DNA of 64,000 nt from an uncultured archaeon (lineage in GTDB: Archaea > Thermoproteota > EX4484-205 > JAAOZP01). The notes beneath the pieces are model-generated. The model did no database searches and was not told the DNA's origin. It saw only the letters and a program-made list of their open reading frames with translations. Positions 21,180 through 60,689 of this stretch are shown one piece after another. The position numbers and the translations under genes are program-made. Position 1 is the first letter of the stretch; the number at the start of each line of letters is the position of its first letter. The DNA lies in contig CALIBN010000008.1 in NCBI GenBank assembly GCA_938045545.1, forward strand, positions 42,631 to 106,630, read 5' to 3'.

Positions 21180-22250
21180 ATGGCCAAGCTGGATTTAAGG
21201 ATTCTCCTCCTGCTAGCAATACTTATTACAACGGTTTCCTGCATAAGCCTGCTTATGATGCAGCAGCCTGGGAGAAGGGTGTTGCAGGGAAACTCAAGCA
21301 GTATCGAAGAGTATTTCAAAACAGTTCCCCTGGAGAGATTGGAGGTTAAGTTCTTCGGGTGGGTTACGCCCGACGATGAAAGCGTTAACAGCTTCTTGAC
21401 TAACGCCGGCAAGTTCACCTGGGTCTCTCCAACAGGTTCGGTAATAGATGCAAACGGAGTTTTTACTCAAAAAGTAGACAGCAGGGTTGTCGAGGCCGCT
21501 AGAAGGAGTAATGTTAGCATTGTTCCACTCGTGGCAAACTCCGGCTTCGACAGGAGTTTGGCTCACAGGATCCTGACGGATCAGGATGTTAGAAGACGCA
21601 CGATGGAAAGCATAGTTCGCTTCATCGTTGAGAACAATTTCTCAGGGGTTAACATAGATTTCGAGAATATTCCTCCGGAGGATAGGGGAGCGTTGAACTC
21701 CTACATGAGGGAGCTGGCTTCAATCCTACATTCCCACGGTAAGATTGTCACGATAGATGTTTCAGGTAAAACTTGGGACGACACCTCGGGTTGGGGCGGG
21801 GCATGGGACTATAGGGCCTTAGGAGAGATCTGCGACTATGTTTGCATAATGTGTTACGACTACCACTGGTCTGGAAGCGAAGCAGGCCCAATAGGACCGT
21901 TAGGCTGGCTCAGGCAGGTGGTTGAACACGCGCTTTCAACAATACCAAGGGAGAAGATAATAATCGGGATTCCATTCTACGGTTACAGGTGGCTTGGTAG
22001 GAATGGTGTCGGCCTAACTTTCAAACAAGCATTGGAAACTGCTAAAAACGTTGATACGCAGGTTTTTCTTAGCGAGAAGGATGGTGAATACCACTATTCC
22101 TACGGATCGTACGAGGTTTGGTTCCAAGGCGCGAAGTCGGTTGAGCTTAAGGCTTCCACAGTGCTTTCATACGGGATAGACAAGATAGCTGCCTGGAGGG
22201 TTGGACAGGAGGATCCAAGAGTCTGGGAGGTTATAAGCAGGAAGCCTTAG
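21180..22250 (+). CDS. Secreted/anchored GH18 glycoside hydrolase (YaaH/YdhD-like)
   Basis: N-terminal TM; FSGVNIDFE catalytic motif, MCYDYH, GIPFYG, AWRVGQED. Confidence 0.9.
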   Translation: MAKLDLRILLLLAILITTVSCISLLMMQQPGRRVLQGNSSSIEEYFKTVPLERLEVKFFGWVTPDDESVNSFLTNAGKFTWVSPTGSVIDANGVFTQKVDSRVVEAARRSNVSIVPLVANSGFDRSLAHRILTDQDVRRRTMESIVRFIVENNFSGVNIDFENIPPEDRGALNSYMRELASILHSHGKIVTIDVSGKTWDDTSGWGGAWDYRALGEICDYVCIMCYDYHWSGSEAGPIGPLGWLRQVVEHALSTIPREKIIIGIPFYGYRWLGRNGVGLTFKQALETAKNVDTQVFLSEKDGEYHYSYGSYEVWFQGAKSVELKASTVLSYGIDKIAAWRVGQEDPRVWEVISRKP

Positions 22251-47089: not shown

Positions 47090-48064
47090 CTACTTTATTC
47101 TTCTAATGGCTTCCTTAATTATCGGGTCCTCTACCCAGTAATAGCCTTCTTTCTCTTCTACTATCATGGCGGAGCAAAGGGTTTCTAAGACTATTTTCAC
47201 CACCTTGCTGTTCGCATTCAGCGTTTTTTTAACTTCGCTCCATCTGGCTCCATTGCTGACTGTCCTCAACGTTTTTACATATAGCTCTCTTCTCCTCCCC
47301 TTCAGGAAATTATTGAGTTCCTCTAAAATTATTTTCGAGCCTTCGCTGAGAGTTTCCTTCAAAGCCTCGTCGTGAGAAAGCCTTCTTATACATCTGAAGT
47401 TGCCGTAGTACGTTAGCCAGCCCACGTATCCATTCAGCCTTTCTACAGCTTCCTCTATCTCCTCGTTCCTTACCCTGACTCTACAGCTTTCTCTGAAACC
47501 ACTTTCAAGAAATTTTTTCGACACCTCGCGGCTGAACGGCTTCAGTACGAGTTTAGCGGGCTTTCTTCCGTAGAGGGGTGAAGCCGGCTTCGGCTCCAAG
47601 AGCCTGCGCAGAATCCCAACGTATGATCCTGAGAAAACTATCTTTATACCTCTATATTTATCCCAAACGCTTTTCAAAACCTTTAAAAAATAATATGAGG
47701 ATACTTCCTGCACTTCGTCTAAAGCAACCACCTTATCCTTGACATGCGAGAAAATGTCTTCTAAGACCCTGCTCCACTTGACCTGTATGAACTTTAGGTC
47801 GAGGCCAACCTCGTCAAGCTTAAACCCGGATTCAGCTGCCAATTTTCTAACTAAGTCCCCAATACTTCTGGCACCCAACAGATTTACGTAAATTCCCCTG
47901 TTTTCATTGGCAAAAGTCTTAAGCAGGCTTGTCTTGCCTGTCATCCTCTTACCAACTACAGCCACCCATAACCCTGAGTCTACCAGACGCTTGAGCTCCT
48001 GATACTCTTCCTCCCTGTCGAATAGCTCTCTACGGCTTTCTTTAGGCCTGAGGTCGAACAACAT
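47090..48064 (-). CDS. Archaeal ATPase (ATPase_2 type) with C-terminal wHTH-like domain
   Basis: MLFDLRPK..R.ELFDRE, GKRMTGKTS, LDEVQ, SGS, SPLYGR, G..GWL; RWSEVK helical tail. Confidence 0.9.
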   Translation of the reverse strand: MLFDLRPKESRRELFDREEEYQELKRLVDSGLWVAVVGKRMTGKTSLLKTFANENRGIYVNLLGARSIGDLVRKLAAESGFKLDEVGLDLKFIQVKWSRVLEDIFSHVKDKVVALDEVQEVSSYYFLKVLKSVWDKYRGIKIVFSGSYVGILRRLLEPKPASPLYGRKPAKLVLKPFSREVSKKFLESGFRESCRVRVRNEEIEEAVERLNGYVGWLTYYGNFRCIRRLSHDEALKETLSEGSKIILEELNNFLKGRRRELYVKTLRTVSNGARWSEVKKTLNANSKVVKIVLETLCSAMIVEEKEGYYWVEDPIIKEAIRRIK

Positions 48065-48096
48065 GGTTACCCAGGTAACTAGTTACCTAGGTAACT
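48065..48096. promoter_or_regulatory. Tandem 16-bp palindromes (putative operator)
   Basis: GGTTACCCAGGTAACT + AGTTACCTAGGTAACT directly between the ATPase start codon and its TATA element. Confidence 0.75.
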
Positions 48097-48507
48097 AATA
48101 AATTTTAAAACATCTTCCTCAAGAAATGCCTAAACAAGACATGCCTTCCAATCCTCCTGCCCCGCGCGCTTGATTAATAATTTGGTAAAAGAAGTTTATT
48201 GGAATTATATGTTCTCGGAATCCACTTTCTCCACCGATTCTATGCTCCAAGCTCGTTCATCCATCTTTTGTTTAAAATACCACAGCGTGGTTACTGATAA
48301 TACCGATAGTTAACATTTATTGTTCTACAAGTATTGCAGAGGAAGTTACTTAGAAAGACACACGCAGTATTCTGGTTGGCCTTTCGTAAGCATAATATAG
48401 GTGTGATTCACCGCTGCGAACAGTCTAGCGCGTACTCGTTAAGCGGAACCTGTCCACATTTCTCAGCGATGGTGCAACCCTAGACCTAGCGGTTTACGAG
48501 TGAGCGC

Positions 48508-50481
48508 TTAGGTAAACAATTTCCTAGATTGAATTGCTGAGGAAAGCCGGTTTATTGCGAGACTTACTATAAAGACGTCGACGAATTTGACAAACTCGTC
48601 TTCGGTTGACAAGAAATGATTCAACGCTTTCCTCATTGATTCAAGCGCCTCCTCATAATCCTCCCGAATATACTGTTTAATGGCCTCAAGAACGAGGGTG
48701 ACGAAAGTATTGTGATGGAGGAGAACTGCGGCAGACCTTTTTTGAACCCCTTCACCGTCCTGCACGATTTTCTCAAGCTGTTTTCTACTCTCTTTAACGA
48801 ATTCGATCATTTTCTCCACGTTTTCCGGTTTAGACAAGTATTCCCTGTGCTCATAACTAGTAGTGTCGATAAACGAATAGATCTTCTCCAAATACTCTGA
48901 AACGAATTCTGCTGAACTGCCGAACGCTGCCTGAAGATAGCTTTTCTTTATGTCTTCTAGACTAACATTTTTATTCCAAAGCGTTTCAGCAAGTATCTTC
49001 ATGTTAATTCCCGTCGGATAGAAGGCGCGCAAGGTTTGACACGATAGTAGACCGTTTAATCCAATTTTATCCAAGTCACGCAAGTCTCGCCATAATGTTT
49101 TTCCTATATCCCCTTTCAAGAAGTCGAAACCGAATGCGAACCATAAGTGGTAATCGAAGAGAAAACTGTCTGACTTCAAAGTTTTCAGCCAGCCTCTAAG
49201 CAGCTGGATAAACTCGTAGTTTGTTCTAGGCGGGGCTATTCTGTTCCTCGAAGGCGCTGCGAGGGAGGCTGATCCTGAACATTTCTCGTCATAGAGAGAA
49301 TGAAGGTAGCAACGGCTTATTGGCGCGAACATGAAGATGGTGTTTCCATACTTGTTGTCAACAAATTCCCCGACTGGAGGCCAAAGAGTGTTTGAATAGC
49401 ATAGGAAGACGATCCTCGTCTTACAGTTCAATTCTCCAAGCCTATGTGACACAGCGTTTACAAGCTTAGAATACCAGTCGGATGGGGATGTTTTCCGGCA
49501 TTCCGGGCATTCACAGTGATTGTTCATTCCGTCTGAGAGCCAGAAGTGGAGTATATCCACCTCTGGATGATCCAACGCATACTGAACGACATGGTCCACA
49601 AGCATGTTGAACGCCTTAGGGTTTGAATAGCAGAGCTCAGTGTTAACAGCAATCCCGCCAAACAGCTCTCTTTTCCCGTTGACCAGAGCCAGAAGCTCCT
49701 TCTGCTCATCCTTGATCGAGCCCTTTTCAGGATCCCATCCAAGGCCTTGAATACCGATTGATTCGCAGGTCCACCCGTGGCCAACCCTTTCAACAATCAT
49801 TCCTCTTTTTTTCAACTCCATTATCACCCTAGCATCCTGTTTTAGAGCCTCGTCCACAGAAATCTCTGGAGAGGTTTCTACCATCGGATTGTATTTTCTA
49901 GTGTAATACCTGTTATAGAAATAGCGTGAAGTTTTGAACTGTAGGAAAAACTCGTTGAGTCTTTGCTTAGCCATCCAGTCTACGAAGTCTATAACCATTT
50001 CAGGTGTTACGGCCCCTTCAATACATACGCCCCGGTGATCATATGAAGCGGTTTCCTCAATTTCGAAGCCGTCTGTCCTTGCCTTCTTAATGCTTGGCAA
50101 CAACTCTCCGTCTTCACCCGGCCACAACCATTCTGCCCCATGCAGCTTCAAATAATAATAGGTGGAGAATAGAACACTCCTAGGGTTAGATCCGGAGATA
50201 AATAGGCAGTGTCCTACCGACTTCAGAATTATCGTGTCTTTTAATTCGCTCTCTTTCTCCCAGTCGATGAAGCGAATGCCAGCAAGTGAAAGATCTCTAG
50301 GTAATCCCAAGTAAATACCCTCTTCAGCTCTATAAGCATCTATGTTTTCAACACGGCTTCTTCTCCCCGTCATTTTTTCAAGGTATCTGGACAGTTCTTC
50401 AGCCGCAAAACTGACGACAGGGTTTCTCCCAACAACATATATTTTAGTTTCTTCAACCAGACTAGAATCCTCGCCTTTCAT
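48508..50481 (-). CDS. DUF4838-type putative glycoside hydrolase with GH20/GH67-like N domain
   Basis: FAAEEL..YL, ISGSNPRSVLF..Y, RG, DWMAK.RLN, ELCYSNP, CECPEC. Confidence 0.75.
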   Translation of the reverse strand: MKGEDSSLVEETKIYVVGRNPVVSFAAEELSRYLEKMTGRRSRVENIDAYRAEEGIYLGLPRDLSLAGIRFIDWEKESELKDTIILKSVGHCLFISGSNPRSVLFSTYYYLKLHGAEWLWPGEDGELLPSIKKARTDGFEIEETASYDHRGVCIEGAVTPEMVIDFVDWMAKQRLNEFFLQFKTSRYFYNRYYTRKYNPMVETSPEISVDEALKQDARVIMELKKRGMIVERVGHGWTCESIGIQGLGWDPEKGSIKDEQKELLALVNGKRELFGGIAVNTELCYSNPKAFNMLVDHVVQYALDHPEVDILHFWLSDGMNNHCECPECRKTSPSDWYSKLVNAVSHRLGELNCKTRIVFLCYSNTLWPPVGEFVDNKYGNTIFMFAPISRCYLHSLYDEKCSGSASLAAPSRNRIAPPRTNYEFIQLLRGWLKTLKSDSFLFDYHLWFAFGFDFLKGDIGKTLWRDLRDLDKIGLNGLLSCQTLRAFYPTGINMKILAETLWNKNVSLEDIKKSYLQAAFGSSAEFVSEYLEKIYSFIDTTSYEHREYLSKPENVEKMIEFVKESRKQLEKIVQDGEGVQKRSAAVLLHHNTFVTLVLEAIKQYIREDYEEALESMRKALNHFLSTEDEFVKFVDVFIVSLAINRLSSAIQSRKLFT

Positions 50482-50654
50482 GAAAAACAACCTGTTTATC
50501 CAGATTTATATCTTTCTGATAACCCTACTGCGGCTTTAATCCCTTCGCAGATGCAAAAGTGCATCTCGATACTGTAGGCGAACTTCCCGTAAGCTCATTT
50601 TTACGCGCTACGTGGAAAAGCCTCTTAAACTCTCGCTAGAAGGTCAGAAATTTT

Positions 50655-51686
50655 TCAAATGCTTCTTTGATAGATCTCTGGGTTCAACAGATGCAATGGT
50701 TTATCTCCATCTAGGAACCTGAATATGTCCTCGACGATTAAATTCGACTGCCGTTCTACAGTCTCCCGAGTATTCCCCCCAATATGGGGTGTCACGATAG
50801 CGTTGTCCAACTCTAGGAACGGGTTTGACGAGTCGACCGGTTCATTCTCCTGCACGTCTAAAGCTGCGCCCGCTATCCTGCCTTGTCTAAGGGCCTCTAG
50901 AAGAGCCTGGTCGTCAACCGTACCAGGGGACGATGTATTGATTATGACTGCTGACGGCTTCATCATGGATATCTCCTCCTTCCCAATGATATGATAAGTC
51001 TCATCCGTGAGCCTTACGTGAAGTGTAATAATATCGGATTGTCTAACTAGCTCGTTCAGGGTAACCCTCTTCCCGCCGACTGAGAGTATCTTATCGTCGG
51101 AAACATAGGGATCATAGACCAGTATCGAAGCCCCGAAAGATAATAGGATTTTTGCGACCCTGGTCCCTATGTCTCCCAAACCTATTATCCCCACCTTCTT
51201 TCCATGTATCTCTCCACCTTCCAGAGCGTTGTAAACATCTTGAAAATCTCTATCCGTCTCATAGCTTACACCCCTCGTGAACATGCGCTGAGCGTAAACC
51301 AGTTTCCGCAACAGCGCCACCATAAGGCCTATTGTCAATTCAGCCACAGCCTGCGAGTTTCTCCCGGGCGCGTGTACAACGGGTATCCCCTTCGCGGTAG
51401 CAGCAGCTACGTCAACCGCGTAGGGAGTCCCCCTGCACGCCCCTATAAACCTAAGGTTCGTCCCTTCTATAACGTCAGCCGTCACTTGGTCCGCTTCCAC
51501 CACGAGTATTTCAACCTTGTTCTCATTAATCTTATCAGCAAGTTCGTCTCCAAAGTAAATGCGCCCAGTTTTCCTCCAGTCTTCATATATGACGTCGGCT
51601 CGTTGCGAGAGCCTTGCTAGAGCTTCTTTAGTGAAGGTCGCAGTTATCAAGCATCTCGGCCTTCCAACAGTTTGTTGTACTGCCAT
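50655..51686 (-). CDS. D-isomer-specific 2-hydroxyacid dehydrogenase
   Basis: PGRN..AVAE, GIIGLG.IG, YDPY, INTS, ALDV..EP, TPHIGG. Confidence 0.92.
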   Translation of the reverse strand: MAVQQTVGRPRCLITATFTKEALARLSQRADVIYEDWRKTGRIYFGDELADKINENKVEILVVEADQVTADVIEGTNLRFIGACRGTPYAVDVAAATAKGIPVVHAPGRNSQAVAELTIGLMVALLRKLVYAQRMFTRGVSYETDRDFQDVYNALEGGEIHGKKVGIIGLGDIGTRVAKILLSFGASILVYDPYVSDDKILSVGGKRVTLNELVRQSDIITLHVRLTDETYHIIGKEEISMMKPSAVIINTSSPGTVDDQALLEALRQGRIAGAALDVQENEPVDSSNPFLELDNAIVTPHIGGNTRETVERQSNLIVEDIFRFLDGDKPLHLLNPEIYQRSI

Positions 51687-51692
51687 CGGTCT

Positions 51693-53177
51693 TCACTCCT
51701 TAGAGTAGGGGAGCCACCACATCCTTCTAGGTTCCCTTATCTTGTTTATGCATATTTGCCTAATGTTCACCATCTCTAAAAGCCCGTATCTGGAGGAGTG
51801 TCTTCCAAGCCCGCTTCGCTTCACTCCTCCCCAGGGCGCGTGCGGAAACGTCACAGCCACATCGTTTATCCAGACTATTCCAGACTCTATTCTTCTAGAA
51901 AGCCTTATCGCCCTATCTTCATTCTCAGTCCAGATCGAAGCCCCTAGGCCGTATTCAGTAGCATTAGCGATCTCAACGGCTTGCTTTTCATCGTGAAAAG
52001 GCATCACGGGTGCAACCGGTCCAAAAATCTCCTCGCTCATGACCTTCATCGAAAGGTTCACATCGGTGAGCACCGTGGGACTATAGAAGAATCCCTTCTT
52101 AAATTCTTTTGGAGCTGAGCCGCCGCACATGATTCGAGCACCTGCCAATATGGCCTGCCTCACAGAACGCGACACATACGATTGTTGCTCTCTGCTTATC
52201 AAAGGCCCAATGTCAGTTGAAGGATCAAAACCGTTTCCAACCTTCAGGGACGAGGCTTTTTCTACGAATTGTTTCAAGAAATCATTAAAAACATTCTCGT
52301 GAACTAATATCCTCTTAGCTGAGACACATATTTGGCCTGCTCCGAAAAACCTGCCGTACAAGGCTCCGTTAACTGCTTCATCCAAGTTTGCATCATCCAA
52401 CACTATGAAGGGATCGCTTCCTCCGAGCTCTAAGATGGTTTTCTTCAAGCCCTTCGCACAATTCAAAGCAACCTGGGCCCCGGCCTTATTGCCACCTGTA
52501 AATACTACTGCTTGGACATCAGACTTTACTAGCATTTCTCCAATCCTCCCTCCGCCTTGCACCATGTTAAACACACCTTTCGGTAGCCCTGCTTCCTCGA
52601 ACAGCTCAGCAATCTTCTCGCCTACCATAGCGGTTAGGGAGGAGGGCTTGAAAATCACGGAGTTCCCAGCCACCATCGCAGGGATGATCGTTTGAATCGG
52701 AATTAGAAAAGGCCAGTTCCAAGGGGATATGACTACTACGACGCCAAGCGGCTCAAACACTATTCGGAACTCATAGTTTCCAGCTTGAGGGAAATCCATA
52801 ATCCTGGTTTCTTCCCTCAGCATTTGCTCAGCCTCAGCCACATAATAGTCAACATACATTTGAGCCCCTGTAACTTCCATGCTGGATTCTACCAAGGGCT
52901 TACCATTTTCTAAAGTTATGACGCTTGAAATCTCGTCGAGCTTATCCATCATCAGTTGTCCAACCTTCTTCAGCAGCTCAACTCTTTCTCCTATGGTCAT
53001 AGTGCTCCATTGATGGAAGGCCCTCTTCGATGATTCAAGAGCAATTCTTAAATCGGGCATTCGCGCGCTCGCCACCTCATGTATTACTTCTTCCGTGGCA
53101 GGGTTTAATTTCGGGATTTTTACACCAGTGGGCGTTATCCATTTTCCATCGATGAACGAACGAACTATATTCAACAC
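51693..53177 (-). CDS. NAD(P)-dependent aldehyde dehydrogenase
   Basis: PWNWP, FTGG, LELGG, GQICVS, EEIFGP; true start about 53177. Confidence 0.93.
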   Translation of the reverse strand: MLNIVRSFIDGKWITPTGVKIPKLNPATEEVIHEVASARMPDLRIALESSKRAFHQWSTMTIGERVELLKKVGQLMMDKLDEISSVITLENGKPLVESSMEVTGAQMYVDYYVAEAEQMLREETRIMDFPQAGNYEFRIVFEPLGVVVVISPWNWPFLIPIQTIIPAMVAGNSVIFKPSSLTAMVGEKIAELFEEAGLPKGVFNMVQGGGRIGEMLVKSDVQAVVFTGGNKAGAQVALNCAKGLKKTILELGGSDPFIVLDDANLDEAVNGALYGRFFGAGQICVSAKRILVHENVFNDFLKQFVEKASSLKVGNGFDPSTDIGPLISREQQSYVSRSVRQAILAGARIMCGGSAPKEFKKGFFYSPTVLTDVNLSMKVMSEEIFGPVAPVMPFHDEKQAVEIANATEYGLGASIWTENEDRAIRLSRRIESGIVWINDVAVTFPHAPWGGVKRSGLGRHSSRYGLLEMVNIRQICINKIREPRRMWWLPYSKE

Positions 53178-53253
53178 GTTAAAAGAACAATTATGATATT
53201 TAAGCTTTAGCGCGATAAAAAAAGTTAAATATCGGAAAAAAGAATGTGAAAGT

Positions 53254-53589
53254 ATGCCGACGAAGGAGCAGGTGTTTGAGTCCCTCGATGAAATAAGGAA
53301 GAGGTTTGAAGACCCGAGTGTCAAGGAGAAGTTTAAAGGTTTTAAGAGGGAGATATGGTTCAAGTTTCCAGACTTGAATGTAGAATACGTTCTGAGCGTC
53401 AATGAAGATGCTGTTGCAACCCTTAGGGAGGGTGCTGTCGAAAAGCCGGATGTGACGGTGGAAATGGACAGCACGACTTTCCTAGGCGTAAGAAGTAAGA
53501 AGATAAGTGCGACACAGGCCTACATGTCTGGAAAGCTTAAAGTTAAAGGCGCCATGCCCGACCTTTTAAAGCTCCAAAAACTCCTGTGA
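53254..53589 (+). CDS. SCP2 sterol/lipid-binding domain protein
   Basis: PDVTVEM, AYMSGKLKVKG...L.KL signature; divergent from the ALDH gene. Confidence 0.9.
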   Translation: MPTKEQVFESLDEIRKRFEDPSVKEKFKGFKREIWFKFPDLNVEYVLSVNEDAVATLREGAVEKPDVTVEMDSTTFLGVRSKKISATQAYMSGKLKVKGAMPDLLKLQKLL

Positions 53590-53593
53590 CGCT

Positions 53594-54238
53594 TTACAAC
53601 ATCATCGTCCTGAAGAGTTCCCGCCCCACTTCAACCGCCCATTCAGGAAGGTTCTTAGGCGACCCAATGGCCTTGGCTAGCAAATATACCGTTGAAGCCT
53701 TCTCGAGAAGCAACGCTTTATGAAAAGCATCCTGAAGATCCTTGCCGCATACAACAGCACCATGGTTTGCGAGCAAAACAGCATTCCTCTGAGTCAGACT
53801 GCTGGCGACGTTAGACGCCAACTCCTCGGTTCCAGCCATCGCATATTCGATTGTCGGAACATTCTCTCCAAGATAAGGAATTAGTTCCTCTAGAAATGGG
53901 GGTATTGTCTCGTGAAGCGAGGCAAGCGCTGTAGCGTGTAAAGAGTGGAAGTGTATCACTGCCCTTGCATCAGGCCTTTTAGAGTATATAAGGAGATGCA
54001 TCTTAGTTTCAACCGACGGATTCCTTTTACCCTGAACTACCTCGCCAACCTCATTCACAACTAGAATGTCGCTGGCCTTTATTTTGTAGCGAGGAACTTG
54101 GCTGGGGGTAATGGAATACCTGTTAGCGACGCGTGTTCTAGCACTCACGTTACCCTCATAATCCAACACGTACCCTATCTTATAAAGGGTCCTTATTGTC
54201 CGCGCGACTTTCTCCCTCACCGATTTAAAAGAATTCAT
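53594..54238 (-). CDS. Class II aldolase/adducin family (FucA-like)
   Basis: GNVS, ITPS, PSVE..MH, HFHS, LANHG. Confidence 0.9.
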   Translation of the reverse strand: MNSFKSVREKVARTIRTLYKIGYVLDYEGNVSARTRVANRYSITPSQVPRYKIKASDILVVNEVGEVVQGKRNPSVETKMHLLIYSKRPDARAVIHFHSLHATALASLHETIPPFLEELIPYLGENVPTIEYAMAGTEELASNVASSLTQRNAVLLANHGAVVCGKDLQDAFHKALLLEKASTVYLLAKAIGSPKNLPEWAVEVGRELFRTMML

Positions 54239-54240
54239 TT

Positions 54241-55737
54241 TCAAGCAATGCTTCTCAACCTCTCGTATATAAGTTTCCACCTCCAATAATTAGACTGGTA
54301 GTCTTCGTAACAAGACGTCGGATTCACGGTCTTTAACTCAACCATTCTCTCAACAATGCTCCTTGGATCCTCAGATCTTAGAAAAGACCAGCATGCGACA
54401 GACGCCCCCACAGCACTCGCCCTCGGCTCAAAGGGAGTTGCAACAGGCGTCGCCAACACATCCGCCAGTATCTGGATGAGGAGGCTGCTGTTCGTCAGCC
54501 CTCCTGAGGCAATTATGGGCGTAAGGATGCTGGGAAAGACTTCCCTAGCCTGATCCAGGTTGCCCCTACACGCGAATGCTATGTTCTCATAACATGCCCT
54601 CGCTATATCACTGGCCTTTGGCTTCTCCCCGATGAACAATGAGGGAAGTATTACGGCTGCGGGGGGCACTTCCATAAGCCTCCTAGCATCCATTATCGAA
54701 GGGCCTAAGAATGCCAGTGTATTCCTGCTTCCGCAGGGGGCTGATCCAGCCAGCTTATCGAAACGCGCGTAGTCAACACTGTCCCCCTTTCTAATCATAA
54801 GCACGTCGTAGGCAAGCCAGTCGAAGATGTTTCCACAAACGCCCAAGTTACTCTCCAGAATCCAGAGTCCATCCAGCGGAAAGCATCCTGTCCACATTCT
54901 CTTCTCCTTGTCAATACGCGGCTCTGACATTATGACGTGCAATGGTGCTGTTGAACCCATCGAGATATATGCCTGGCCGTTCGAGAGAGCCATCGACCCG
55001 ATGCCTGAACACTGTGTATCTCCTGCAGCCATTACAACAGGGGTCCCGGAGGATATTCCTGTCGCTTTTTGGAATTCCTCGGTCGGATAGCCAACCAGCT
55101 GGCCAAACTTAACGATCTCAGGCAGTTGTCCAAGTTCCACGCCCGCAATCCTGCACATCTCCTCGCTCCATCTCCGTCGACGTATGTCGAACAAATAGGT
55201 TCCTGCAGCCTGCGACGGTTCTTCAGCAGGCTTACCCGTAAGCATGAAAATCATCCAGCCGTCTATCGTCGTGAAGAACCTGGATAAGCTGAATGCCTCT
55301 GGATCGTTTTCGATGAGCCATCTTATCCTACTTCCCGAGAAAAGGAACGAGGGGTGAAGCCCAGTGATCTGATGTGCTTCCTCGCTCACCGAATTGGTGA
55401 AGACGTTCTCCACCTCGGCGCCCCTCGCATCCATGTTTGGGCAAAGCATCAACGTCCTTCCGTCTCGCCCTATGACTGCTGTTGAAAACCTTTGCCCAGT
55501 CATCGTAACTGCTGAAACACCTCCTGTTTTCAGTCGTCTCACACACTCCGCCGCTGTGCTGCAAACCGAGGACCACAGCTTCTGGGGGTCCAGTTCCACT
55601 ATATACGGGCGGTCGGGAAAAGGCAGCTTCTTTTCCAAGGGGTGGGTGGAGGAGCTCACTATTCTTCCTGACTCGGATACTAGTCGAGAATGAACTGCAC
55701 GCGTAGTTAGCTCTATTACTAGAACATGTTCCTCCAT
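54241..55737 (-). CDS. FGGY-family carbohydrate kinase
   Basis: TGQR, DAR, GDTQC, SGG, ADV motifs; N-terminal IELTT replaces canonical IDxGT. Confidence 0.88.
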   Translation of the reverse strand: MEEHVLVIELTTRAVHSRLVSESGRIVSSSTHPLEKKLPFPDRPYIVELDPQKLWSSVCSTAAECVRRLKTGGVSAVTMTGQRFSTAVIGRDGRTLMLCPNMDARGAEVENVFTNSVSEEAHQITGLHPSFLFSGSRIRWLIENDPEAFSLSRFFTTIDGWMIFMLTGKPAEEPSQAAGTYLFDIRRRRWSEEMCRIAGVELGQLPEIVKFGQLVGYPTEEFQKATGISSGTPVVMAAGDTQCSGIGSMALSNGQAYISMGSTAPLHVIMSEPRIDKEKRMWTGCFPLDGLWILESNLGVCGNIFDWLAYDVLMIRKGDSVDYARFDKLAGSAPCGSRNTLAFLGPSIMDARRLMEVPPAAVILPSLFIGEKPKASDIARACYENIAFACRGNLDQAREVFPSILTPIIASGGLTNSSLLIQILADVLATPVATPFEPRASAVGASVACWSFLRSEDPRSIVERMVELKTVNPTSCYEDYQSNYWRWKLIYERLRSIA

Positions 55738-55819
55738 AATTTCTTACACATCGTCGCCCTATAAAATCCTTATTTTTTCTCGTACCGAGGGTGAAAAGGG
55801 TTTTCAATTCTGGGATAGC

Positions 55820-56110
55820 ATGGTCGACGAAGCGCAAGCAAGAATGACATTTTATCATGCAGCACTAGGGAAAACTGGAACACCGCTCACGATAGAGTAT
55901 GACGTTAACAAGGCTGATTTACCACATTATGCTATTGAACGCCAGATGGTTCTGCTCTGTTATACGCCTTCCTATAAAGAAACTCCACTTATGGTGAAGT
56001 TTTGACGGTCAAGGTGCAGCCGCCATCATTATCGGAAGCAACGCGAAACCGTTGCAGGCTTAATTCTAGCATCACGGCTCTGCCCTACGAGCGTTTCGTA
56101 GGATGGATTA
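55820..56110 (+). mobile_element. Possible degenerate IS200/IS605 TnpB 3' remnant with terminal hairpin
   Basis: IEYDVNKADLP.. and RCSR...QRETVAGLIL weakly resemble the TnpB C-terminus; hairpin CCTACGA-GCGTT-TCGTAGG at about 56084-56102. Confidence 0.25.
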
Positions 56111-56170
56111 AATTAAACTTAAAACCCCAGCAACATCAAGAGCAGTAACGAATTCTTATGCGCATAAATG

Positions 56171-57448
56171 TTAAAGTTTAAGCAACCATTTCCAAAGGGG
56201 GATGCATCTAATTGTTTTATTATCAATCTCAAACTCATCCTCGTAATCCCAGGTGATTATAAGTAGGTTCTTGCATTTCAATTGTTCGCTTGCCTTCAGC
56301 AGGGCTCTGACTTCTCTTTTCTCAATATCGTTTCTGCTGGACGCATAGGTTACTTGAATCAGCTGCTTTACTTGGAAGTCCTCTTTTAAAACGAAATCAA
56401 CCTCGTTGTTGTTGATTTTCAAGTAGAATATTTCAAAACCCTCCTGTAGCTTTTTCCTCAAAAGTTCTACGGCTACCAGGTTTTCCATCAGTTTCCCCTT
56501 CGACTCTATAAATCTAAAGCTTAGAGTAGAGATTATGGAGTTGTCTATTACGTAAACTTTCCTAGGCGATCTTATTTGCTCACTAACCTTAAGAGAAAAA
56601 TTATTAAGGGAAAAGACTAGAAAAGTTTCCTCCAGGTATCTAGTATAGTTGATAACGGTATGTATGCTTCTAAACCCAAGCATATTGTTCAGCCTCCTGA
56701 AGGAGACTAGACTGGAAAAGTTTGAAACGAGATATCTCGCCAACTCATACATGGAGGAGGCAAACCTTATCTTATACCTCCCAACCACGTCTTTCAAAAC
56801 CACTGCGTTAAATAGGCTTTCCACGTAAGGCTTAAAATCCAGATTCTTCACAACCACCTCCGGGAAGCCCCCGGCATCCAAGTATTCTGAAAGCAGGTTC
56901 ATAACCCTCCCCTGATAATCCTTCAAGGCCAAGTATTCCTTCTCGACTTCAAACCCCTTCGCCTTCAAGAATTCTCTGAAGGAAAACGGTAGAATCGTGG
57001 TCTCCACATATCTTCCCGTCAAGTGAGATGCCAGCTCACTGCCAAGCAGCTTCGAATTAGAACCGGTTATTATCAAGTTGTACCCCTGCCTCTGCAACCT
57101 GTTAAGGAAAAGCTCCCACCCCTCCACGTTCTGAACCTCGTCGAAGAAAAGAAAGTCGAAATCGCCATAGACCCTGTGGGCAAGCTTAACAACCTGGTTC
57201 AAATCCCCTGTTCTAGCTAAAAACTCGTCGTCGAAATTAACATAGCCAAACCTTCTTCCCCTTAATATTTGAAAGGAGAAAAAGGTTTTACCGGCTCTCC
57301 GAGGACCAGTCACAGCCTTAATCAGACTCTTATCCAGAAAACTTCTTATTCTCTCCGTACCCTCCCTCTCCACAAACGGCTGTGAGTAGACCCTTTCCAG
57401 CTCCATCTTCTGCGAGAGAACCCTCTCCTCCATTACGTTATCAATCAT
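56171..57448 (-). CDS. AAA_14/DUF4143 ATPase with C-terminal PD-(D/E)xK-like domain
   Basis: GPRRAGKT, FFDEVQ, TGSNS, LTGR, GGFPE, EN.V..EL, EVDF...IQV; start likely ATG 57448. Confidence 0.9.
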   Translation of the reverse strand: MIDNVMEERVLSQKMELERVYSQPFVEREGTERIRSFLDKSLIKAVTGPRRAGKTFFSFQILRGRRFGYVNFDDEFLARTGDLNQVVKLAHRVYGDFDFLFFDEVQNVEGWELFLNRLQRQGYNLIITGSNSKLLGSELASHLTGRYVETTILPFSFREFLKAKGFEVEKEYLALKDYQGRVMNLLSEYLDAGGFPEVVVKNLDFKPYVESLFNAVVLKDVVGRYKIRFASSMYELARYLVSNFSSLVSFRRLNNMLGFRSIHTVINYTRYLEETFLVFSLNNFSLKVSEQIRSPRKVYVIDNSIISTLSFRFIESKGKLMENLVAVELLRKKLQEGFEIFYLKINNNEVDFVLKEDFQVKQLIQVTYASSRNDIEKREVRALLKASEQLKCKNLLIITWDYEDEFEIDNKTIRCIPLWKWLLKL

Positions 57449-57488
57449 ACTGCGCAAAAATTTAAACTTTTGTGCAGTATACTGCACA
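57447..57488. promoter_or_regulatory. Inverted repeats around the TATA element (putative operator)
   Basis: ATACTGCGCAAAA..TTTAAA..TTTTGTGCAGTAT plus perfect palindrome TGTGCAGTATACTGCACA (57471-57488). Confidence 0.7.
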
Positions 57489-57677
57489 TCTTTATAAAGA
57501 CTAAACAAACCGGAAACCTCATAAAAACCCGTAGGAACGCCGTCTTTACACACCATTCGGAAACCATTATCCTCAACGTCTTAAAAGGGGCTGAGCAACT
57601 GTTTCTATCTAGCGTAAAGCTGTTAGCTATTAACTATGCTAGCGCACCGGCTTCACCCGTTCACGCCGGCAGCCCTC

Positions 57678-57860
57678 TCCTGAAGAGGAGGGAAGGCAGA
57701 ACTTGGTGTCAGAACTTGGTCAGAAGCACGCCCTGGCGAAGCAAAAAAAGTACTGGGCGCGAACAGCAAGGTGGTGAAAATAGTCTTAGAAACCCTTTCC
57801 TTAACCATGATGATAGAAGAGAAAGAAGGTTGCCACTTAATAGATGACCAGTGATCAAGG
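57678..57860 (+). pseudogene. Inverted decayed copy of the 3' end of the 47090-48064 ATPase gene
   Basis: 57759-57798 is the exact reverse complement of 47176-47215; similarity continues on both sides. Confidence 0.85.
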
Positions 57861-58047
57861 TAACCAGCATAATATAGATGTGATTCACCGGCTGCAAATA
57901 ATTCGGTGCGCACGCATAACACTATGCTAACAGCATGGATGCTGAATAATACTTCGACTACCATTCTCTCCAAAGCATAAACTGGCCATACATATTTTTT
58001 TAAGCAAGTAACGATGGTCAGCTTTATATAACGCGCGTTAATCTCTA

Positions 58048-58977
58048 ATGATAATGATGGAAGGTTTAAAATATGAAAGGCCTCCTTCCCAACCACCTTA
58101 TAAATGGCTGAGTATCGCGATACTTCTTTTTGTTTCAGGCATAGTCTCCGGATTAGTCTTTGGTTACTGGGTGAGTGGCGAACAGATAGGTTTTCTTCGG
58201 AATGAAGTCACGAACCTGCAGTATAACAACGCTCAGCTGCAATACCGGATAACGCAGCTAAAAACATCCTACGACTCGCTTCTAGCATCGTATGATTCAC
58301 TTAATACACAGTATCAGAAGCTTCAAGAAAAATACAGGTTTTCGCCAACAATCCCATACGCCCTCATCTGCAACGGAACGATACAATGGTTATTCAAGGA
58401 TATGAGGGGAAACATCTTGAAATGGCAGATTCCAATCGATACGTACAGGGCATACGTGAAAAGGGAGAAAAGCAAAGACTATGTAAAACTATCCTTCAAA
58501 AACGGTACTACTGTAAAAGTTCTAGACATGAGAAACTACATCGAGCCAAAATTCTTCTCCAGTGTTATACTCGAGTTGACACGTGGCCGAACAGATGAGG
58601 AATTCGTACGGGAAGTGGATAACGTTAAGAATCAGATAGTTGTCTATGGAACCGGTCTTGGAGACCATTACAGGTGGCCTGTCGAAACACTGGTTGAAGG
58701 CAGAGGACAATGTGGAGATACTACTATTTTAATGGCAAGCATGATAATCGAGGGAAACCACCTGATGAACTACGGTATGAAAATCTACATATGGTTCGTC
58801 GATGCAGAGCACATCTCAGACCCTATCAATGTAAACCACGCTTTGATCGAGGTTGAATTTAAGAGCGGAAACAGGTGGATAATAGAGACGACGGCTAATT
58901 ACTTCTACAATTATCTTGAACATCAATCGGTCTCCGGCTGGAAATATGACGTGACCTATCAAGGCTTAGGAAATTAG
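58048..58977 (+). CDS. Membrane-anchored coiled-coil protein with transglutaminase-like domain
   Basis: N-terminal TM, heptad coil, ETLVEGRGQCGD (Cys), NHA (His), IETT. Confidence 0.78.
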   Translation: MIMMEGLKYERPPSQPPYKWLSIAILLFVSGIVSGLVFGYWVSGEQIGFLRNEVTNLQYNNAQLQYRITQLKTSYDSLLASYDSLNTQYQKLQEKYRFSPTIPYALICNGTIQWLFKDMRGNILKWQIPIDTYRAYVKREKSKDYVKLSFKNGTTVKVLDMRNYIEPKFFSSVILELTRGRTDEEFVREVDNVKNQIVVYGTGLGDHYRWPVETLVEGRGQCGDTTILMASMIIEGNHLMNYGMKIYIWFVDAEHISDPINVNHALIEVEFKSGNRWIIETTANYFYNYLEHQSVSGWKYDVTYQGLGN

Positions 58978-58979
58978 GA

Positions 58980-59676
58980 AAACAAGGAGTAACTGAATAC
59001 TCCTCTATCGTTTTACCAGGCGGCTTCAACCCCTCCTCCTTAAACCCCTCAATTAGGAACTCCTTAGACAAATCCCTAGAGAATCTCTCGATAAGAACCT
59101 CATGAACATACCTTCCGTAAAGCGGCGAAGAAGGATTGTCAACTCCGAGGAAGCTTCTTAACAAGCCGATTTCAGAGCCCGAGACCACTAGGGAAATGTT
59201 CTCCAGGTTATCGTAAGAGTATGCAATGAGGTCCCTGAGCTCAACGGATATGGGAGGCTTAAGAGACTGGACTTCGTCAACCACCAGAACAAACCTCTCA
59301 CCCCTCTTGTTAATCTCTTGGAGAAGACCCATAAGGCTCACGGAATCACTACCCCTCCACTTCACTTCAACACCCTCAGCCGAGAAGCTTATTCCCCTTA
59401 TGCCCTCCAACAGCCTCCTCACCTTGCTGAGGGGATCGTGAAGACCGTCACCTATCCTCTCGTAGAGCTCAGACCTCCTTGAAACACCCCTAGCATCTAA
59501 AGTCCTTTACGCTCCCGGAGGAACGCTTTAACAAGACTCGTCTTCCCAATCCTCCTGATCCCCAGCACGAGCGTAAGCGGCCGTCCGTGGTCAACAGCCC
59601 TATCAAACTCCCTAAGCTCATCCTCTCTGTCGAACAAATCGCTCCGAGACGATTTCGGCCTAATGTCGAAAAGCAA
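58980..59676 (-). pseudogene. Archaeal ATPase pseudogene (paralogue of 47090-48064)
   Basis: LLFDIRPKSSRSDLFDREDE, GIRRIGKTS, VDEVQ, SGSEIG, SPLYGR; frameshifted near 59500 and truncated before the C-terminal domain. Confidence 0.85.
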
Positions 59677-59710
59677 GTTCCGGTCCAGAACTCAGTTCCG
59701 GTCCGGAACT
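59676..59710. promoter_or_regulatory. Tandem 17-bp palindromes (putative operator)
   Basis: AGTTCCGGTCCAGAACT-C-AGTTCCGGTCCGGAACT abutting the TTG start of the ATPase pseudogene. Confidence 0.75.
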
Positions 59711-60068
59711 ATTAAACCTTACGCTAACCGTCCACCAAGCGATATCCCATGCCGCCCAACTTAAACCGCTTGAGAAGCCATAACACCAGGCGGAAAACAT
59801 TCTTAGAAACTAGGAGACATGTCCTCGCAACCCGTTAAAAAATGGAGGAAGGCTCCAAAACCTTAACCTTATACACCATCAGCCTCAACGCCCAGCGAGA
59901 GATGACCACAGAGAAATCAAAGAAAAAATGCTATAGTTCAACGAGATAAACATCAGAGGACGCCCCTCGTAGTACGCCAAGGCTGAAGCCCAACAACACC
60001 AAGAAACACGTATTTAGTTGACGTAAAACTTATATATTAAAAATCCCTTTCTATAGTGGGAAATAAAA

Positions 60069-60287: not shown

Positions 60288-60689
60288 ATGCCCTTCGTAG
60301 ATTCAAACATCTTCGCATACCATTTGGCAGCCGACCCCGTATACGGTAAAACAGCGAGAAAAATAATAGAGAGAATAGAAAACGGCGAAGAATCCTACAC
60401 GTCTACGCTTGTAATCGCCCAAGTATGCAGCTACTTGAAGTGGAAGAAAAGACAGGACGCAATACCGCTATTCCTATCATTCCTAAAAGGGCTCACATCC
60501 CTGCGGAAAATCGAAACAAGCATACTTGACTTCGAGGAGGCGAGAAACCTTCAGAAACAGCAAAACCTACCGTGGGCAATCTGGGACGACATAGTGATCA
60601 CCGCACAGATGCAAAGAATCAATATAAAAGAAATATACTCAAACGATAAAGATTTCGACAGAATCCCCTGGGTAAAAAGATTATTCTAA
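60288..60689 (+). CDS. vapC: PIN-domain toxin VapC
   Basis: FVDSNIF, WDD, IYSNDKDFD. Confidence 0.9.
   Translation: MPFVDSNIFAYHLAADPVYGKTARKIIERIENGEESYTSTLVIAQVCSYLKWKKRQDAIPLFLSFLKGLTSLRKIETSILDFEEARNLQKQQNLPWAIWDDIVITAQMQRINIKEIYSNDKDFDRIPWVKRLF

Follow-up and report, generated by a model that had tools for sequence, protein, structure and literature searches.

AAA+ ATPase genes of two families, ATPase_2 and AAA_14/DUF4143, carry palindromic sites in their own core promoters, and we consider it likely that each gene forms a unit with a private operator that is read by the C-terminal winged helix of its own product. The layout of these sites is conserved family-wide, the sites are private within the genome, and the operator letters of ATPase_2 genes covary with the recognition helix. 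From these sequence comparisons, each ATPase probably binds its own promoter, with repression as the probable outcome. We found the arrangement at three sites, (a) to (c), in a 64-kb stretch of DNA from an uncultured archaeon (the whole analysed stretch is hereafter called the window); no description of such a self-operator arrangement was found in the literature searched. The first site contains an intact gene and the array that adjoins it:

47090..48064, minus strand: gene (a), intact 324-aa ATPase_2 AAA+ ATPase (COG1672, SSO1545/PAB2304-type) with a C-terminal winged helix (open reading frame and translation)
48065..48080, minus strand: proximal 16-bp dyad unit of array (a), AGTTACCTGGGTAACC, 14/16 identical, abutting the ATG at 48064 (sequence; conserved in orthologues)
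48081..48096, minus strand: distal unit of array (a), AGTTACCTAGGTAACT, a perfect 16-bp palindrome (sequence)
48097..48110, minus strand: A/T-rich region, putative TATA box of gene (a) (read from sequence)

Read along the gene strand, TATA box, AGTTACCTAGGTAACT, AGTTACCTGGGTAACC and ATG follow one another in this order. Upstream of ten orthologues of gene (a), conservation was limited to the TATA box (tttaWTA) and the 32-bp array, and the arrays are the sole non-coding element conserved among orthologues. Gene (a) encodes a full-length ATPase_2 protein with Walker A, Walker B and a C-terminal winged helix-turn-helix (wHTH). The Pfam ATPase_2 domain (PF01637) scored 59.9 bits (cut-off 33.2), and the family profile matched the solved members 2fna (E 3.6e-106) and 2qen (E 2.9e-100) over their whole length; these were also the first (TM 0.83) and second (TM 0.77) Foldseek matches of the gene (a) model. 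The Walker A/B residues G38, R40, G43, K44, S46, D116 and E117 were invariant in 14/14 aligned homologues. The AF2 model (pLDDT 89.6) places the wHTH at residues 259-310, with helices H259-269, H275-282 and H286-298 followed by a wing (strands 303-305/308-310; local pLDDT >89), and Pfam detected a weak match to the MCM_C wHTH. The modelled fold, AAA+ core, lid and winged helix, resembles those of Orc1/Cdc6 and STAND regulators.

The second site contains the remains of a paralogue:

59497..59676, minus strand: 59-aa N-terminal piece of pseudogene (b), running from a TTG start to a stop (83% identity with residues 1-59 of L010, an intact orthologue)
58994..59500, minus strand: pseudogene (b), second fragment in another frame, corresponding to orthologue residues 61-229 (tblastn)
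59676..59692, minus strand: proximal 17-bp dyad unit of array (b), AGTTCTGGACCGGAACT, one arm mismatch (sequence)
59694..59710, minus strand: distal unit of array (b), AGTTCCGGACCGGAACT, a perfect 17-bp palindrome (sequence)
59711..59718, minus strand: putative TATA-like box of (b), GGTTTAAT on the gene strand (read from sequence)

Here the order is GGTTTAAT, AGTTCCGGACCGGAACT, one G and AGTTCTGGACCGGAACT, whose last base coincides with the opening T of the TTG start codon (59676). For the second fragment, with an open reading frame at 58895-59422, Pfam ATPase_2 scored 35 bits. Compared with a 341-aa orthologue, the C-terminal ~110 aa, including the wHTH, are missing, so that (b) is a frameshifted, truncated pseudogene without a winged helix. 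Arrays orthologous to (b) are present at six other loci (L010, L022, L090, L091, L109 and L110). The array is retained ahead of the dead gene, an observation that counts against the self-operator reading.

The third site belongs to the other ATPase family:

56171..57433, minus strand: gene (c), AAA_14 + DUF4143 ATPase (COG1373, PADLOC candidate PDC-S01) with a wHTH and a C-terminal alpha/beta domain (Pfam, PADLOC, AF2)
57448..57455, minus strand: operator (c), single half-site GCGCAGTA (gene strand) downstream of the TATA box (sequence)
57460..57469, minus strand: putative TATA box of (c), AAGTTTAAAT on the gene strand (read from sequence)
57471..57488, minus strand: operator (c), perfect 18-bp palindrome TGTGCAGTATACTGCACA just upstream of the TATA box (sequence)

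Both AAA_14 (104.2 bits) and DUF4143 (68.8 bits) scored above their Pfam cut-offs in gene (c). Given the TATA spacing, its start is likely the second ATG, at 57433, rather than 57448 or 57556. The AF2 model (pLDDT 90.4) shows the C-terminal alpha/beta domain at residues 317-417, and E349 and D351 were invariant in 19/19 sequences. DUF4143 is listed among PD-(D/E)XK families in the part of PMC3424549 consulted; a whole-chain Foldseek search with the gene (c) model returned ATPase folds only. In two homologues 45-50% identical to (c), L262 and L263, TGTGCAGTA half-sites also flank the TATA box. The sequence-only reading had described three ATPase genes, each with its array; the two arrays and the half-sites around the TATA box of (c) are all present at the positions it gave, and the description holds for genes (a) and (c) but not for (b), given its frameshift and the loss of its winged helix.

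These sites are rare. The window contains five perfect palindromes (arms >=8, loop <=1), against a roughly estimated two expected in random sequence, and four of the five fall within sites (a)-(c). The whole 2.03-Mb genome, a Brockarchaeota-like MAG, has 101 two-copy tandem repeats with a period of 14-22 nt; only in three of them did each unit contain a dyad, namely (a), (b) and a weak example at C23:17199. No strong tandem-palindrome array besides (a) and (b) was present in the genome. Their units did not recur elsewhere in the genome at <=2 mismatches, with the exception of one 2-mismatch match for (a), and the palindrome of operator (c) was unique at 0 mismatches.

Comparison of upstream regions, which the sequence-only reading had proposed as a check, revealed arrays or dyads family-wide in both families. 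We compared 73 ATPase_2 homologues from Brockarchaeota, Nitrososphaeria/Caldarchaeum, Desulfurococcales, Hadarchaeota, Korarchaeia, Culexarchaeia and Mars-, Micr- and Baldrarchaeota. In 53 of them a tandem pair lay upstream, with its end <=12 nt away from the start codon, as opposed to 2/134 other ORFs (>=150 aa) of the same loci, so that a general lack of arrays among homologues, named beforehand as grounds for abandoning the idea, was not what we found. When a dyad was also demanded, the figures were 42/73 homologues and 1/1624 ORFs of the genome itself, the latter being gene (a). Another 116 ATPase_2 homologues from a sample of 401 genomes of the phylum looked the same. A stricter caller recognized 118 of the 181 pooled arrays, with periods of 16-21 nt, and 107 of these 118 ended within -2 to +3 nt of the start; in these figures start codons and TATA boxes are predictions and most homologue sequences come from MAGs. 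The order in ATPase_2 is TATA box, two tandem 16-21-bp dyads and start codon, directly adjoining. Among AAA_14 homologues, an exact repeat of >=10 nt within 70 nt upstream occurred in 13/29, as opposed to 33/1624 ORFs of the genome. The private dyads of AAA_14/DUF4143 genes bracket the TATA box or are centred on it, and the bracketing layout recurs in other families of the phylum.

The tandem test failed in 20 of the 73 homologues and the strict caller in 63 of the 181 arrays. Some of these failures result from mis-set start codons and others from degenerate left arms. The latter hint that the unit may be read asymmetrically, through a G-rich centre plus the right half-site, and not as a simple dyad. 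Of 236 units, 182 had a G-rich centre on the coding strand (C exceeded G in 22), an asymmetry for which a symmetric dimer offers no explanation, and some units (L058, L062 and L063) retain nothing but the G-run and the right arm. The G-run, together with the direct tandem arrangement, recalls ORB elements with their dyad plus a G-string, and beyond its own family the nearest folds to gene (a) are Orc1/Cdc6 proteins (including the DNA complexes 2qby and 2v1u), with STAND NTPases next. The ATPase might accordingly bind its array as an Orc1/ORB-like or iteron-like site on which an ATP-dependent oligomer assembles for loading, remodelling or sensor parking, any control of its own transcription, even a positive one, being a by-product. 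We find this unlikely: an assembly site would need no pinning between TATA box and start codon, only two units are present, the inspected sequences show no A/T-rich unwinding element between inverted sites, a single genome can hold up to five paralogues, and the genome has a separate gene, at C51, that from its sequence we take to be Orc1/Cdc6-like.

No neighbouring gene is conserved with the arrays, the largest neighbour family occurring in 6 of 74 loci. With the privacy of the units, this agrees with the orthogonal gene-plus-operator units suggested from the window. The ATPase_2 gene is patchily distributed (19/41 relatives and 146/401 genomes of the phylum), and 12 of 40 match rows contain in-frame stops. 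Patchiness, decay and the presence of the same gene and operator pair in distant phyla would suit repeats that are non-regulatory remnants or ends of mobile cassettes, or recombination sites. This is an extremely improbable reading, since the repeats are confined to a single flank of the gene and keep a constant place in the promoter, and the compared ATPase_2 loci showed no integrase, transposase or other conserved flank. The units are possibly mobile or defence-related, as was also proposed from the window, the grounds being the patchy distribution, the frequent pseudogenes and the fact that gene (c) matches a PADLOC candidate still awaiting validation.

The sequence-only reading had further predicted that operators co-diversify with the HTH, and covariation between the two was found. 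In the ATPase_2 sequences compared, the outer base of the half-site tracks the residue with which the wHTH recognition helix begins, i.e., the one aligned to P0001 position 286 and starting the predicted helix H286-298. Asp at this position was associated with a C-type half-site 40 times and with a G-type once, the single exception being a mis-register of the caller, whereas Lys (19 times) and Asn (12 times) were found with G in all 31 cases and never with C; Ser occurred with either base (15 G, 7 C). As the homologues are related, raw counts overstate independence. The column was first spotted by eye, and a subsequent scan of all columns ranked it first in mutual information (0.709 of 1.0 bit; next column 0.546). 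In nine independent pairs, a small set, taken from an ML tree built without the covarying columns, the operator changed in the same direction in 7.2, in the opposite one in 0 and remained unchanged in 1.8 (median p 0.016). Symmetric double changes preserve the dyad, as in GTTCTG..CAGAAC versus CTTCTG..CAGAAG, or GTTA-G6-TAAC (IPNN) versus CTTA-G6-TAAG (IPDP). Since operator letters vary with the recognition-helix residue, each of these proteins is most likely the regulator of its own gene.

The covariation also bears on two other explanations. At archaeal promoters, small dedicated regulators are the usual binders of palindromic operators, and array (b) persists ahead of a dead gene, so that another trans-acting regulator might be the binder. 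However, it would have to be a separate one for each paralogue, every unit being unique in its genome, no conserved neighbour accompanies the array, and the operator base covaries with a residue of the ATPase itself; we hold such a regulator to be very unlikely. Alternatively, translation or stability could be controlled from a short 5' leader in which the dyads form RNA or single-strand hairpins. Judging by TATA spacing, the proximal unit is probably in part within such a leader, its G-rich centre is Shine-Dalgarno-like, and symmetric double changes would keep a hairpin too. Nevertheless, the distal unit begins right at the end of the TATA box and should stay untranscribed, the AAA_14 dyads bracket the TATA box, and a hairpin leaves the covariation with an amino acid unexplained. 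Arm mismatches comprised 28 of G.U type and 28 of A/C type, and this lack of a sense-strand G.U bias favours a DNA dyad over an RNA hairpin, which we consider highly improbable.

The two tandem dyads of ATPase_2 genes occupy the ~35 bp from TATA box to start codon and, filling this gap, lie over the point where transcription is expected to begin. Under the preferred self-operator reading, protein bound there, probably as one dimer on each dyad, would allow TBP/TFB binding and block RNA polymerase recruitment, and the outcome would be negative autoregulation; both binding and its repressive sign are suggested by this geometry, and ATP may also play a role. In AAA_14/DUF4143 genes, with dyads around or on the TATA box, the bound protein would instead occlude TBP/TFB. 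The ATPase must serve some further cellular purpose, because a purely self-regulating protein makes no sense; we would guess at a function of sensor or defence type, with the dose kept low. More speculatively, and doubtful as it stands, COG1672 and COG1373 ATPases might be sensors or effectors that park on their private promoter sites until a trigger releases them. If so, the resting protein would keep a potentially harmful ATPase (or ATPase-nuclease) scarce, and some trigger, for instance a nucleotide signal or foreign nucleic acid, would at once free the effector and de-repress the gene. A simple, evolvable code at the recognition-helix N-cap (Asp reading C; Lys/Asn reading G) would insulate paralogues within a genome, and hundreds of orthogonal ATPase-operator pairs would exist in nature.

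Gene (a) belongs to the same family as SSO1545 (PDB 2FNA) and PAB2304 (PDB 2QEN), solved archaeal ATPase_2/COG1672 proteins of unknown function with which it shares the AAA+ core, helical lid and C-terminal winged helix. No DNA target, operator or regulatory role of these two proteins was reported in the literature searched, the structure paper on SSO1545 (Xu et al. 2009) lying outside this search. Archaeal Orc1/Cdc6 proteins (1w5t, 1fnn, 2qby, 2v1u) have the same AAA+ plus winged-helix architecture, and their genes commonly adjoin their own binding sites. Likeness of gene (a) to them is at fold level only (Foldseek E about 1e-9, 13-16% identity), and its membership in Orc1/Cdc6 was rejected as Pfam gave no Cdc6/ORC family match. 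ORB sites at an unwinding element were likewise rejected for the arrays, with their two direct tandem units fixed between TATA box and start. Orc1-2 of Saccharolobus islandicus is a non-initiator AAA+/wH transcription regulator, according to the parts of PMC9738581 and PMC12490963 consulted. In contrast to the Orc1/Cdc6 proteins, the target of the ATPase would be a private two-unit array in its own core promoter, neither ORBs nor a genome-wide regulon motif.

Gene (c) matches the phage-defence candidate PDC-S01 (AAA_14 + DUF4143, COG1373) end to end (PADLOC model PDLC04787, E 2.1e-106, residues 15-422). In the part of PMC12988326 consulted, PDC-S01 ranks fourth in frequency among the candidate defence systems in prokaryotes, this candidate and PDC-S27 are archaea-enriched ATPases fused to PD-(D/E)XK domains, most such PADLOC candidates still await experimental validation, and neither autoregulation nor a winged helix is mentioned. 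Gene (a) matched PDC-S27 (ATPase_2 + DUF234 PD-(D/E)XK) weakly and in its ATPase part only (E 7e-8, residues 14-188); this assignment was rejected, as Pfam found neither DUF234 (PF03008) nor a nuclease domain and the protein ends with the wHTH.

Geometry, uniqueness and phylogenetic footprint are those of an autorepressor with a gene-specific operator overlapping the core promoter. Archaeal repressors with such operators include MDR1, Phr, LrpA and the TrmB family; a site that overlies the transcription start, downstream of the TATA box, prevents recruitment of RNA polymerase, and one over the TATA box/BRE blocks TBP/TFB. Their likeness to the ATPases lies in operator placement: they are small dedicated regulators with regulons, whereas the putative binder here is a 324-425-aa AAA+ ATPase whose only detectable genomic site is its own promoter. 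Selfish and defence modules, including toxin-antitoxin operators, restriction-modification C-proteins and WYL/BrxR-type defence-island regulators, are also autoregulated. Like the ATPase genes, they are self-contained and have private operators, with diverged, non-cross-reacting operators in same-genome paralogues; in the ATPases, however, the regulator and the presumed effector are a single polypeptide that has no partner gene.

The reading of this window from sequence alone had proposed three ATPase genes, each with a private palindrome array touching its start codon. When we re-read the sequence, all three repeat sets lay at exactly the coordinates claimed (48065-48096 for locus (a), 59676-59710 for (b) and 57447-57488 for (c)). 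Loci (a) and (c) indeed proved to be genes with their own arrays, but (b), a paralogue of (a), is a pseudogene: it is split between two frames and has lost its final ~110 residues, and with them the winged helix. The pieces are as follows:

47090-48064, minus strand: gene (a), intact, encoding an ATPase_2 protein of 324 aa (Pfam, 59.9 bits)
56171-57433, minus strand: gene (c), encoding an AAA_14 + DUF4143 protein (Pfam)
59497-59676, minus strand: N-terminal piece of (b), 59 aa, stop-terminated (ORF reading)
to ~58994, minus strand: second piece of (b), in another frame, equivalent to residues 61-229 of a 341-aa orthologue (orthologue comparison)

A search of NCBIfam with proteins (a) and (c) assigned no family to either, and gene (c) matched the PADLOC phage-defence candidate PDC-S01 from end to end (E 2.1e-106). 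The genome that carries them (2.03 Mb in 51 contigs, 48% G+C), of which the window is C8:42631-106630, has as its closest relatives in a public collection MAGs labelled Candidatus Brockarchaeota. The genes surrounding the three loci belong to ordinary metabolism (2-hydroxyacid dehydrogenase, aldehyde dehydrogenase, class II aldolase, FGGY kinase and a PEP-utilising enzyme), and the first four form a co-directional cluster (50655-55737, minus strand) that resembles an operon for the catabolism of deoxy-sugars or sugar acids. About 600 bp from array (b) is a PIN-domain ORF (60288-60689, plus strand; E 2.2e-14) that may encode a VapC-type toxin; no antitoxin partner was recognised for it. Overlapping the 3' remnant of the pseudogene is a 309-aa ORF (58048-58977, plus strand) with a weak Pfam match of the coiled-coil HALZ type, below the cut-off, and a Cys-containing motif that by eye recalls transglutaminase-like proteases; this ORF may point to the event in which (b) was truncated. 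Turnover of these ATPase genes is high: among relatives, 12 of the 40 rows matching (a)-type genes contained stops, two of the five AAA_14 paralogues in the genome are split, and an extra ATPase_2 fragment is found on contig C49. Upstream of (a), a 400-bp non-coding stretch (48111-48507) is partly conserved in a sister genome (L007/L020/L053), where the orthologue of (a) is a pseudogene with multiple stops and a single dyad unit left.

On the gene strand of (a), the TATA box is followed by a perfect 16-bp palindrome, a second copy identical at 14 of 16 positions and the ATG. Locus (b) shows the same succession: a perfect 17-bp palindrome comes first and, one base further on, a copy with a single arm mismatch, then a TTG start, the first base of which is common to the repeat. 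At (c), a perfect 18-bp palindrome stands just upstream of the TATA box and a third half-site just downstream. A palindrome scan of the window found five perfect palindromes with arms of at least 8 nt, four of them belonging to these sites. At the scale of the genome, only 3 of 101 two-copy tandem repeats of period 14-22 had a dyad in both units, namely (a), (b) and one weak case elsewhere. The units of (a) and (b) have no further copy in the genome at up to two mismatches, except for one 2-mismatch match for (a), and palindrome (c) is unique at 0 mismatches.

Homologues of (a) were present in 19 of the 41 related genomes searched and, in the upstream regions inspected, almost every homologue whose N-terminus was covered had, after a TATA box, two tandem dyads ending at the start codon, the sequence of the dyad varying between paralogue groups. 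The layout was the same at 80 loci from many archaeal phyla, obtained in a scan of one genome per species. The sequence-only reading depended on such dyads not being generally missing upstream of ATPase_2 homologues, and they are not: a tandem pair (period 14-22, at least 75% identity, ending at most 12 nt from the start) preceded 53 of 73 family homologues, compared with 2 of 134 other ORFs of at least 150 aa at the same loci and 16 of 1624 such ORFs in the genome carrying the window. A pair with dyads was found in 42 of the 73 homologues under a tolerant criterion, in 1 of the 134 neighbouring ORFs under a strict one, and in a single one of the 1624 genomic ORFs, which is gene (a) itself. 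A search of 401 genomes of the phylum gave matches in 146 and provided a second sample of 120 genes, of which the 116 usable ones gave a similar impression. For the pooled set of 181 unique proteins, a two-unit caller with stricter rules recognised arrays in 118 and left 63 uncalled. The called arrays have a period of 16-21 nt (mode 19), begin 30-42 nt upstream of the start (mode 35) and, in 107 of 118 cases, end within -2 to +3 nt of it. Judged from these upstream sequences, the dyad arrays are a trait of the family and no local oddity.

Among ten orthologues of (a) from several lineages (57-100% protein identity), the TATA box and the 32-bp array are the only upstream part in common, the remaining DNA not being alignable. 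We also sought a conserved neighbour across 74 loci; the largest neighbour family occurred at 6 of them and none travels with the unit, so that the ATPase is the sole conserved protein beside each array. At one locus (L107), the conserved LFDVAPK N-terminus comes straight after a typical array, and none of ATG, GTG and TTG stands where a start is expected, which may reflect a non-canonical start or a sequence error. A SurR-like motif (GTTn3AAC) was rejected as an identity for the units, which have a spacing of 8-11 nt and differ between paralogues.

The sequence-only reading had further held that operators co-diversify with the HTH. The AF2 model of protein (a) (pLDDT 89.6) has a C-terminal winged helix with its recognition helix at residues 286-298 and, on the tree, operator classes track both the protein clades and the start of this helix. 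Called arrays were assigned to a type from the outermost G or C of the half-sites, and the type was set against the residue aligned to position 286 of protein (a), which has Ser there.

Operator type of called arrays according to the residue aligned to position 286
Asp: C-type 40; G-type 1 (caller register error); mixed 4
Lys: C-type 0; G-type 19; mixed 0
Asn: C-type 0; G-type 12; mixed 3
Ser: C-type 7; G-type 15; mixed 7

Because this column had first been spotted by eye, all alignment columns with at most 20% gaps were then scanned; position 286 ranked first for mutual information with operator type (0.709 of 1.0 bit, the next column reaching 0.546) and also for the normalised value. Common descent was taken into account with a maximum-likelihood tree, the helix columns being left out of the alignment behind it, on which we chose phylogenetically independent pairs differing in Asp versus non-Asp. 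A smaller first data set (56 rows, from 80 loci) gave 5 such pairs (p ~0.125) and, since this was under-powered, the 120 additional genes were sampled. With 9 pairs, the operator changed in the same way in 7.2 on average, in the opposite way in 0, and was unchanged in 1.8 (sign test, median p 0.016, range 0.008-0.031). The co-diversification thus holds for operator base and residue 286, including among independent pairs. Its direction, Asp with C and Lys or Asn with G, is the one to be expected from general protein-DNA chemistry, where cytosine is a partner of acidic side chains and guanine of Lys or Asn. Between sister lineages, double changes occur symmetrically across all four half-sites, for example GTTCTG..CAGAAC versus CTTCTG..CAGAAG, or GTTA-G6-TAAC with IPNN versus CTTA-G6-TAAG with IPDP, and two genomes (G388 and G279) each contain paralogues differing mainly at the outer base and residue 286.

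Dyads this close to a start codon could also act as RNA. Non-Watson-Crick arm positions were G.U-compatible equally often in the sense and antisense orientations (28 and 28), which gives no hint of an RNA hairpin, and the distal unit, directly after the TATA box, should not be transcribed. Some features are unexplained by a symmetric dimer on DNA: 182 of 236 units have a G-rich centre when read on the coding strand (22 have the reverse bias, C>G), some units keep only the centre and right arm, L077 pairs two mirror-image units made of two different half-sites, and the first unit of L102 is inverted, with its C-run on the coding strand. An Orc1-like asymmetric protein contact might lie behind these oddities, as might a Shine-Dalgarno(-like) role of the proximal centre in a short leader. 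A predicted complex of two copies of protein (a) scored 0.00, which bears neither way on a dimer.

Private repeats also accompany homologues of (c) from relatives and from other families of the phylum, with a geometry unlike that of ATPase_2: the dyads lie on either side of the TATA box or make up a single long palindrome with TATA at its centre, and the copy on the downstream side is often in contact with the start codon. Within 70 nt upstream, exact repeats of at least 10 nt in either orientation occurred in 13 of 29 homologues, which are mutually related, compared with 33 of 1624 ORFs of the genome carrying the window (15 of 29 and 105 of 1624, respectively, for at least 9 nt). In two homologues 45-50% identical to (c), from another genome family, the TATA box is flanked on either side by the same TGTGCAGTA half-sites. 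In the model of protein (c) (pLDDT 90.4), the AAA+ core is joined by a winged helix (H230-274 plus wing) and by a C-terminal alpha/beta domain in which E349 and D351 are invariant; PMC3424549 lists DUF4143 as a PD-(D/E)XK family. The other AAA_14/DUF4143 paralogues of the genome each have their own promoter repeats:

C45, ~1520-1551: dyad with 8-nt arms between TATA and start
C35, ~2040-2125: 17-nt direct repeats flanking a palindromic TATA
C43, ~21400-21480: inverted repeat around TATA; gene split into two frames
C2, ~75950-76090: own promoter repeats; gene split into two frames

In archaea, a factor that occupies the start site, downstream of TATA, keeps polymerase from being recruited, and one that occupies TATA/BRE shuts out TBP/TFB, as known for MDR1, Phr, LrpA and TrmB-type repressors. 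The geometries of the two ATPase families match these two modes, and for this reason we read both as probable negative autoregulators, inferring binding, stoichiometry, transcription start and sign of regulation. An ATPase_2 protein on the dyads between TATA and start would block polymerase recruitment, and an AAA_14/DUF4143 protein on dyads around TATA would block TBP/TFB. Comparative evidence supports the initial proposal that the array-bearing ATPases are sequence-specific self-regulators.

Both ATPase families are very abundant in archaea and, to our knowledge, have no known function. The private operator offers a first concrete and cheaply testable activity for them, predicted sequence-specific binding to a 16-19-bp DNA site, and the predicted amino-acid/base rule can be tested by one point mutation. 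The families would also provide a natural set of mutually orthogonal regulator-operator pairs compatible with the archaeal (eukaryote-like) transcription machinery and, for annotators, the array is a mark in the DNA from which the true start codon of these genes can be set.

Gene (a) truly belongs to the SSO1545/PAB2304 family. The DUF234 nuclease that is part of the architecture of the phage-defence candidate PDC-S27 is missing from it. Its next-nearest folds are those of Orc1/Cdc6 and STAND NTPases; membership of Orc1/Cdc6 was rejected by sequence, and the sites are not in an origin-like arrangement. The genome has a separate 412-aa gene (C51:8529-9764), below the ATPase_2 cut-off, which from its sequence we take to be Orc1/Cdc6-like; no comparable array was seen in its upstream region. 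PDC-S01, the counterpart of gene (c), ranks fourth in frequency among the defence candidates of prokaryotes according to PMC12988326, a paper that makes no mention of autoregulation. We found no description of operators or autoregulation in the openly accessible main texts on the COG1672/PF01637 and COG1373/DUF4143 families. Autoregulatory operators as such are a known kind of element; here they would be built into two large families of AAA+ ATPases.
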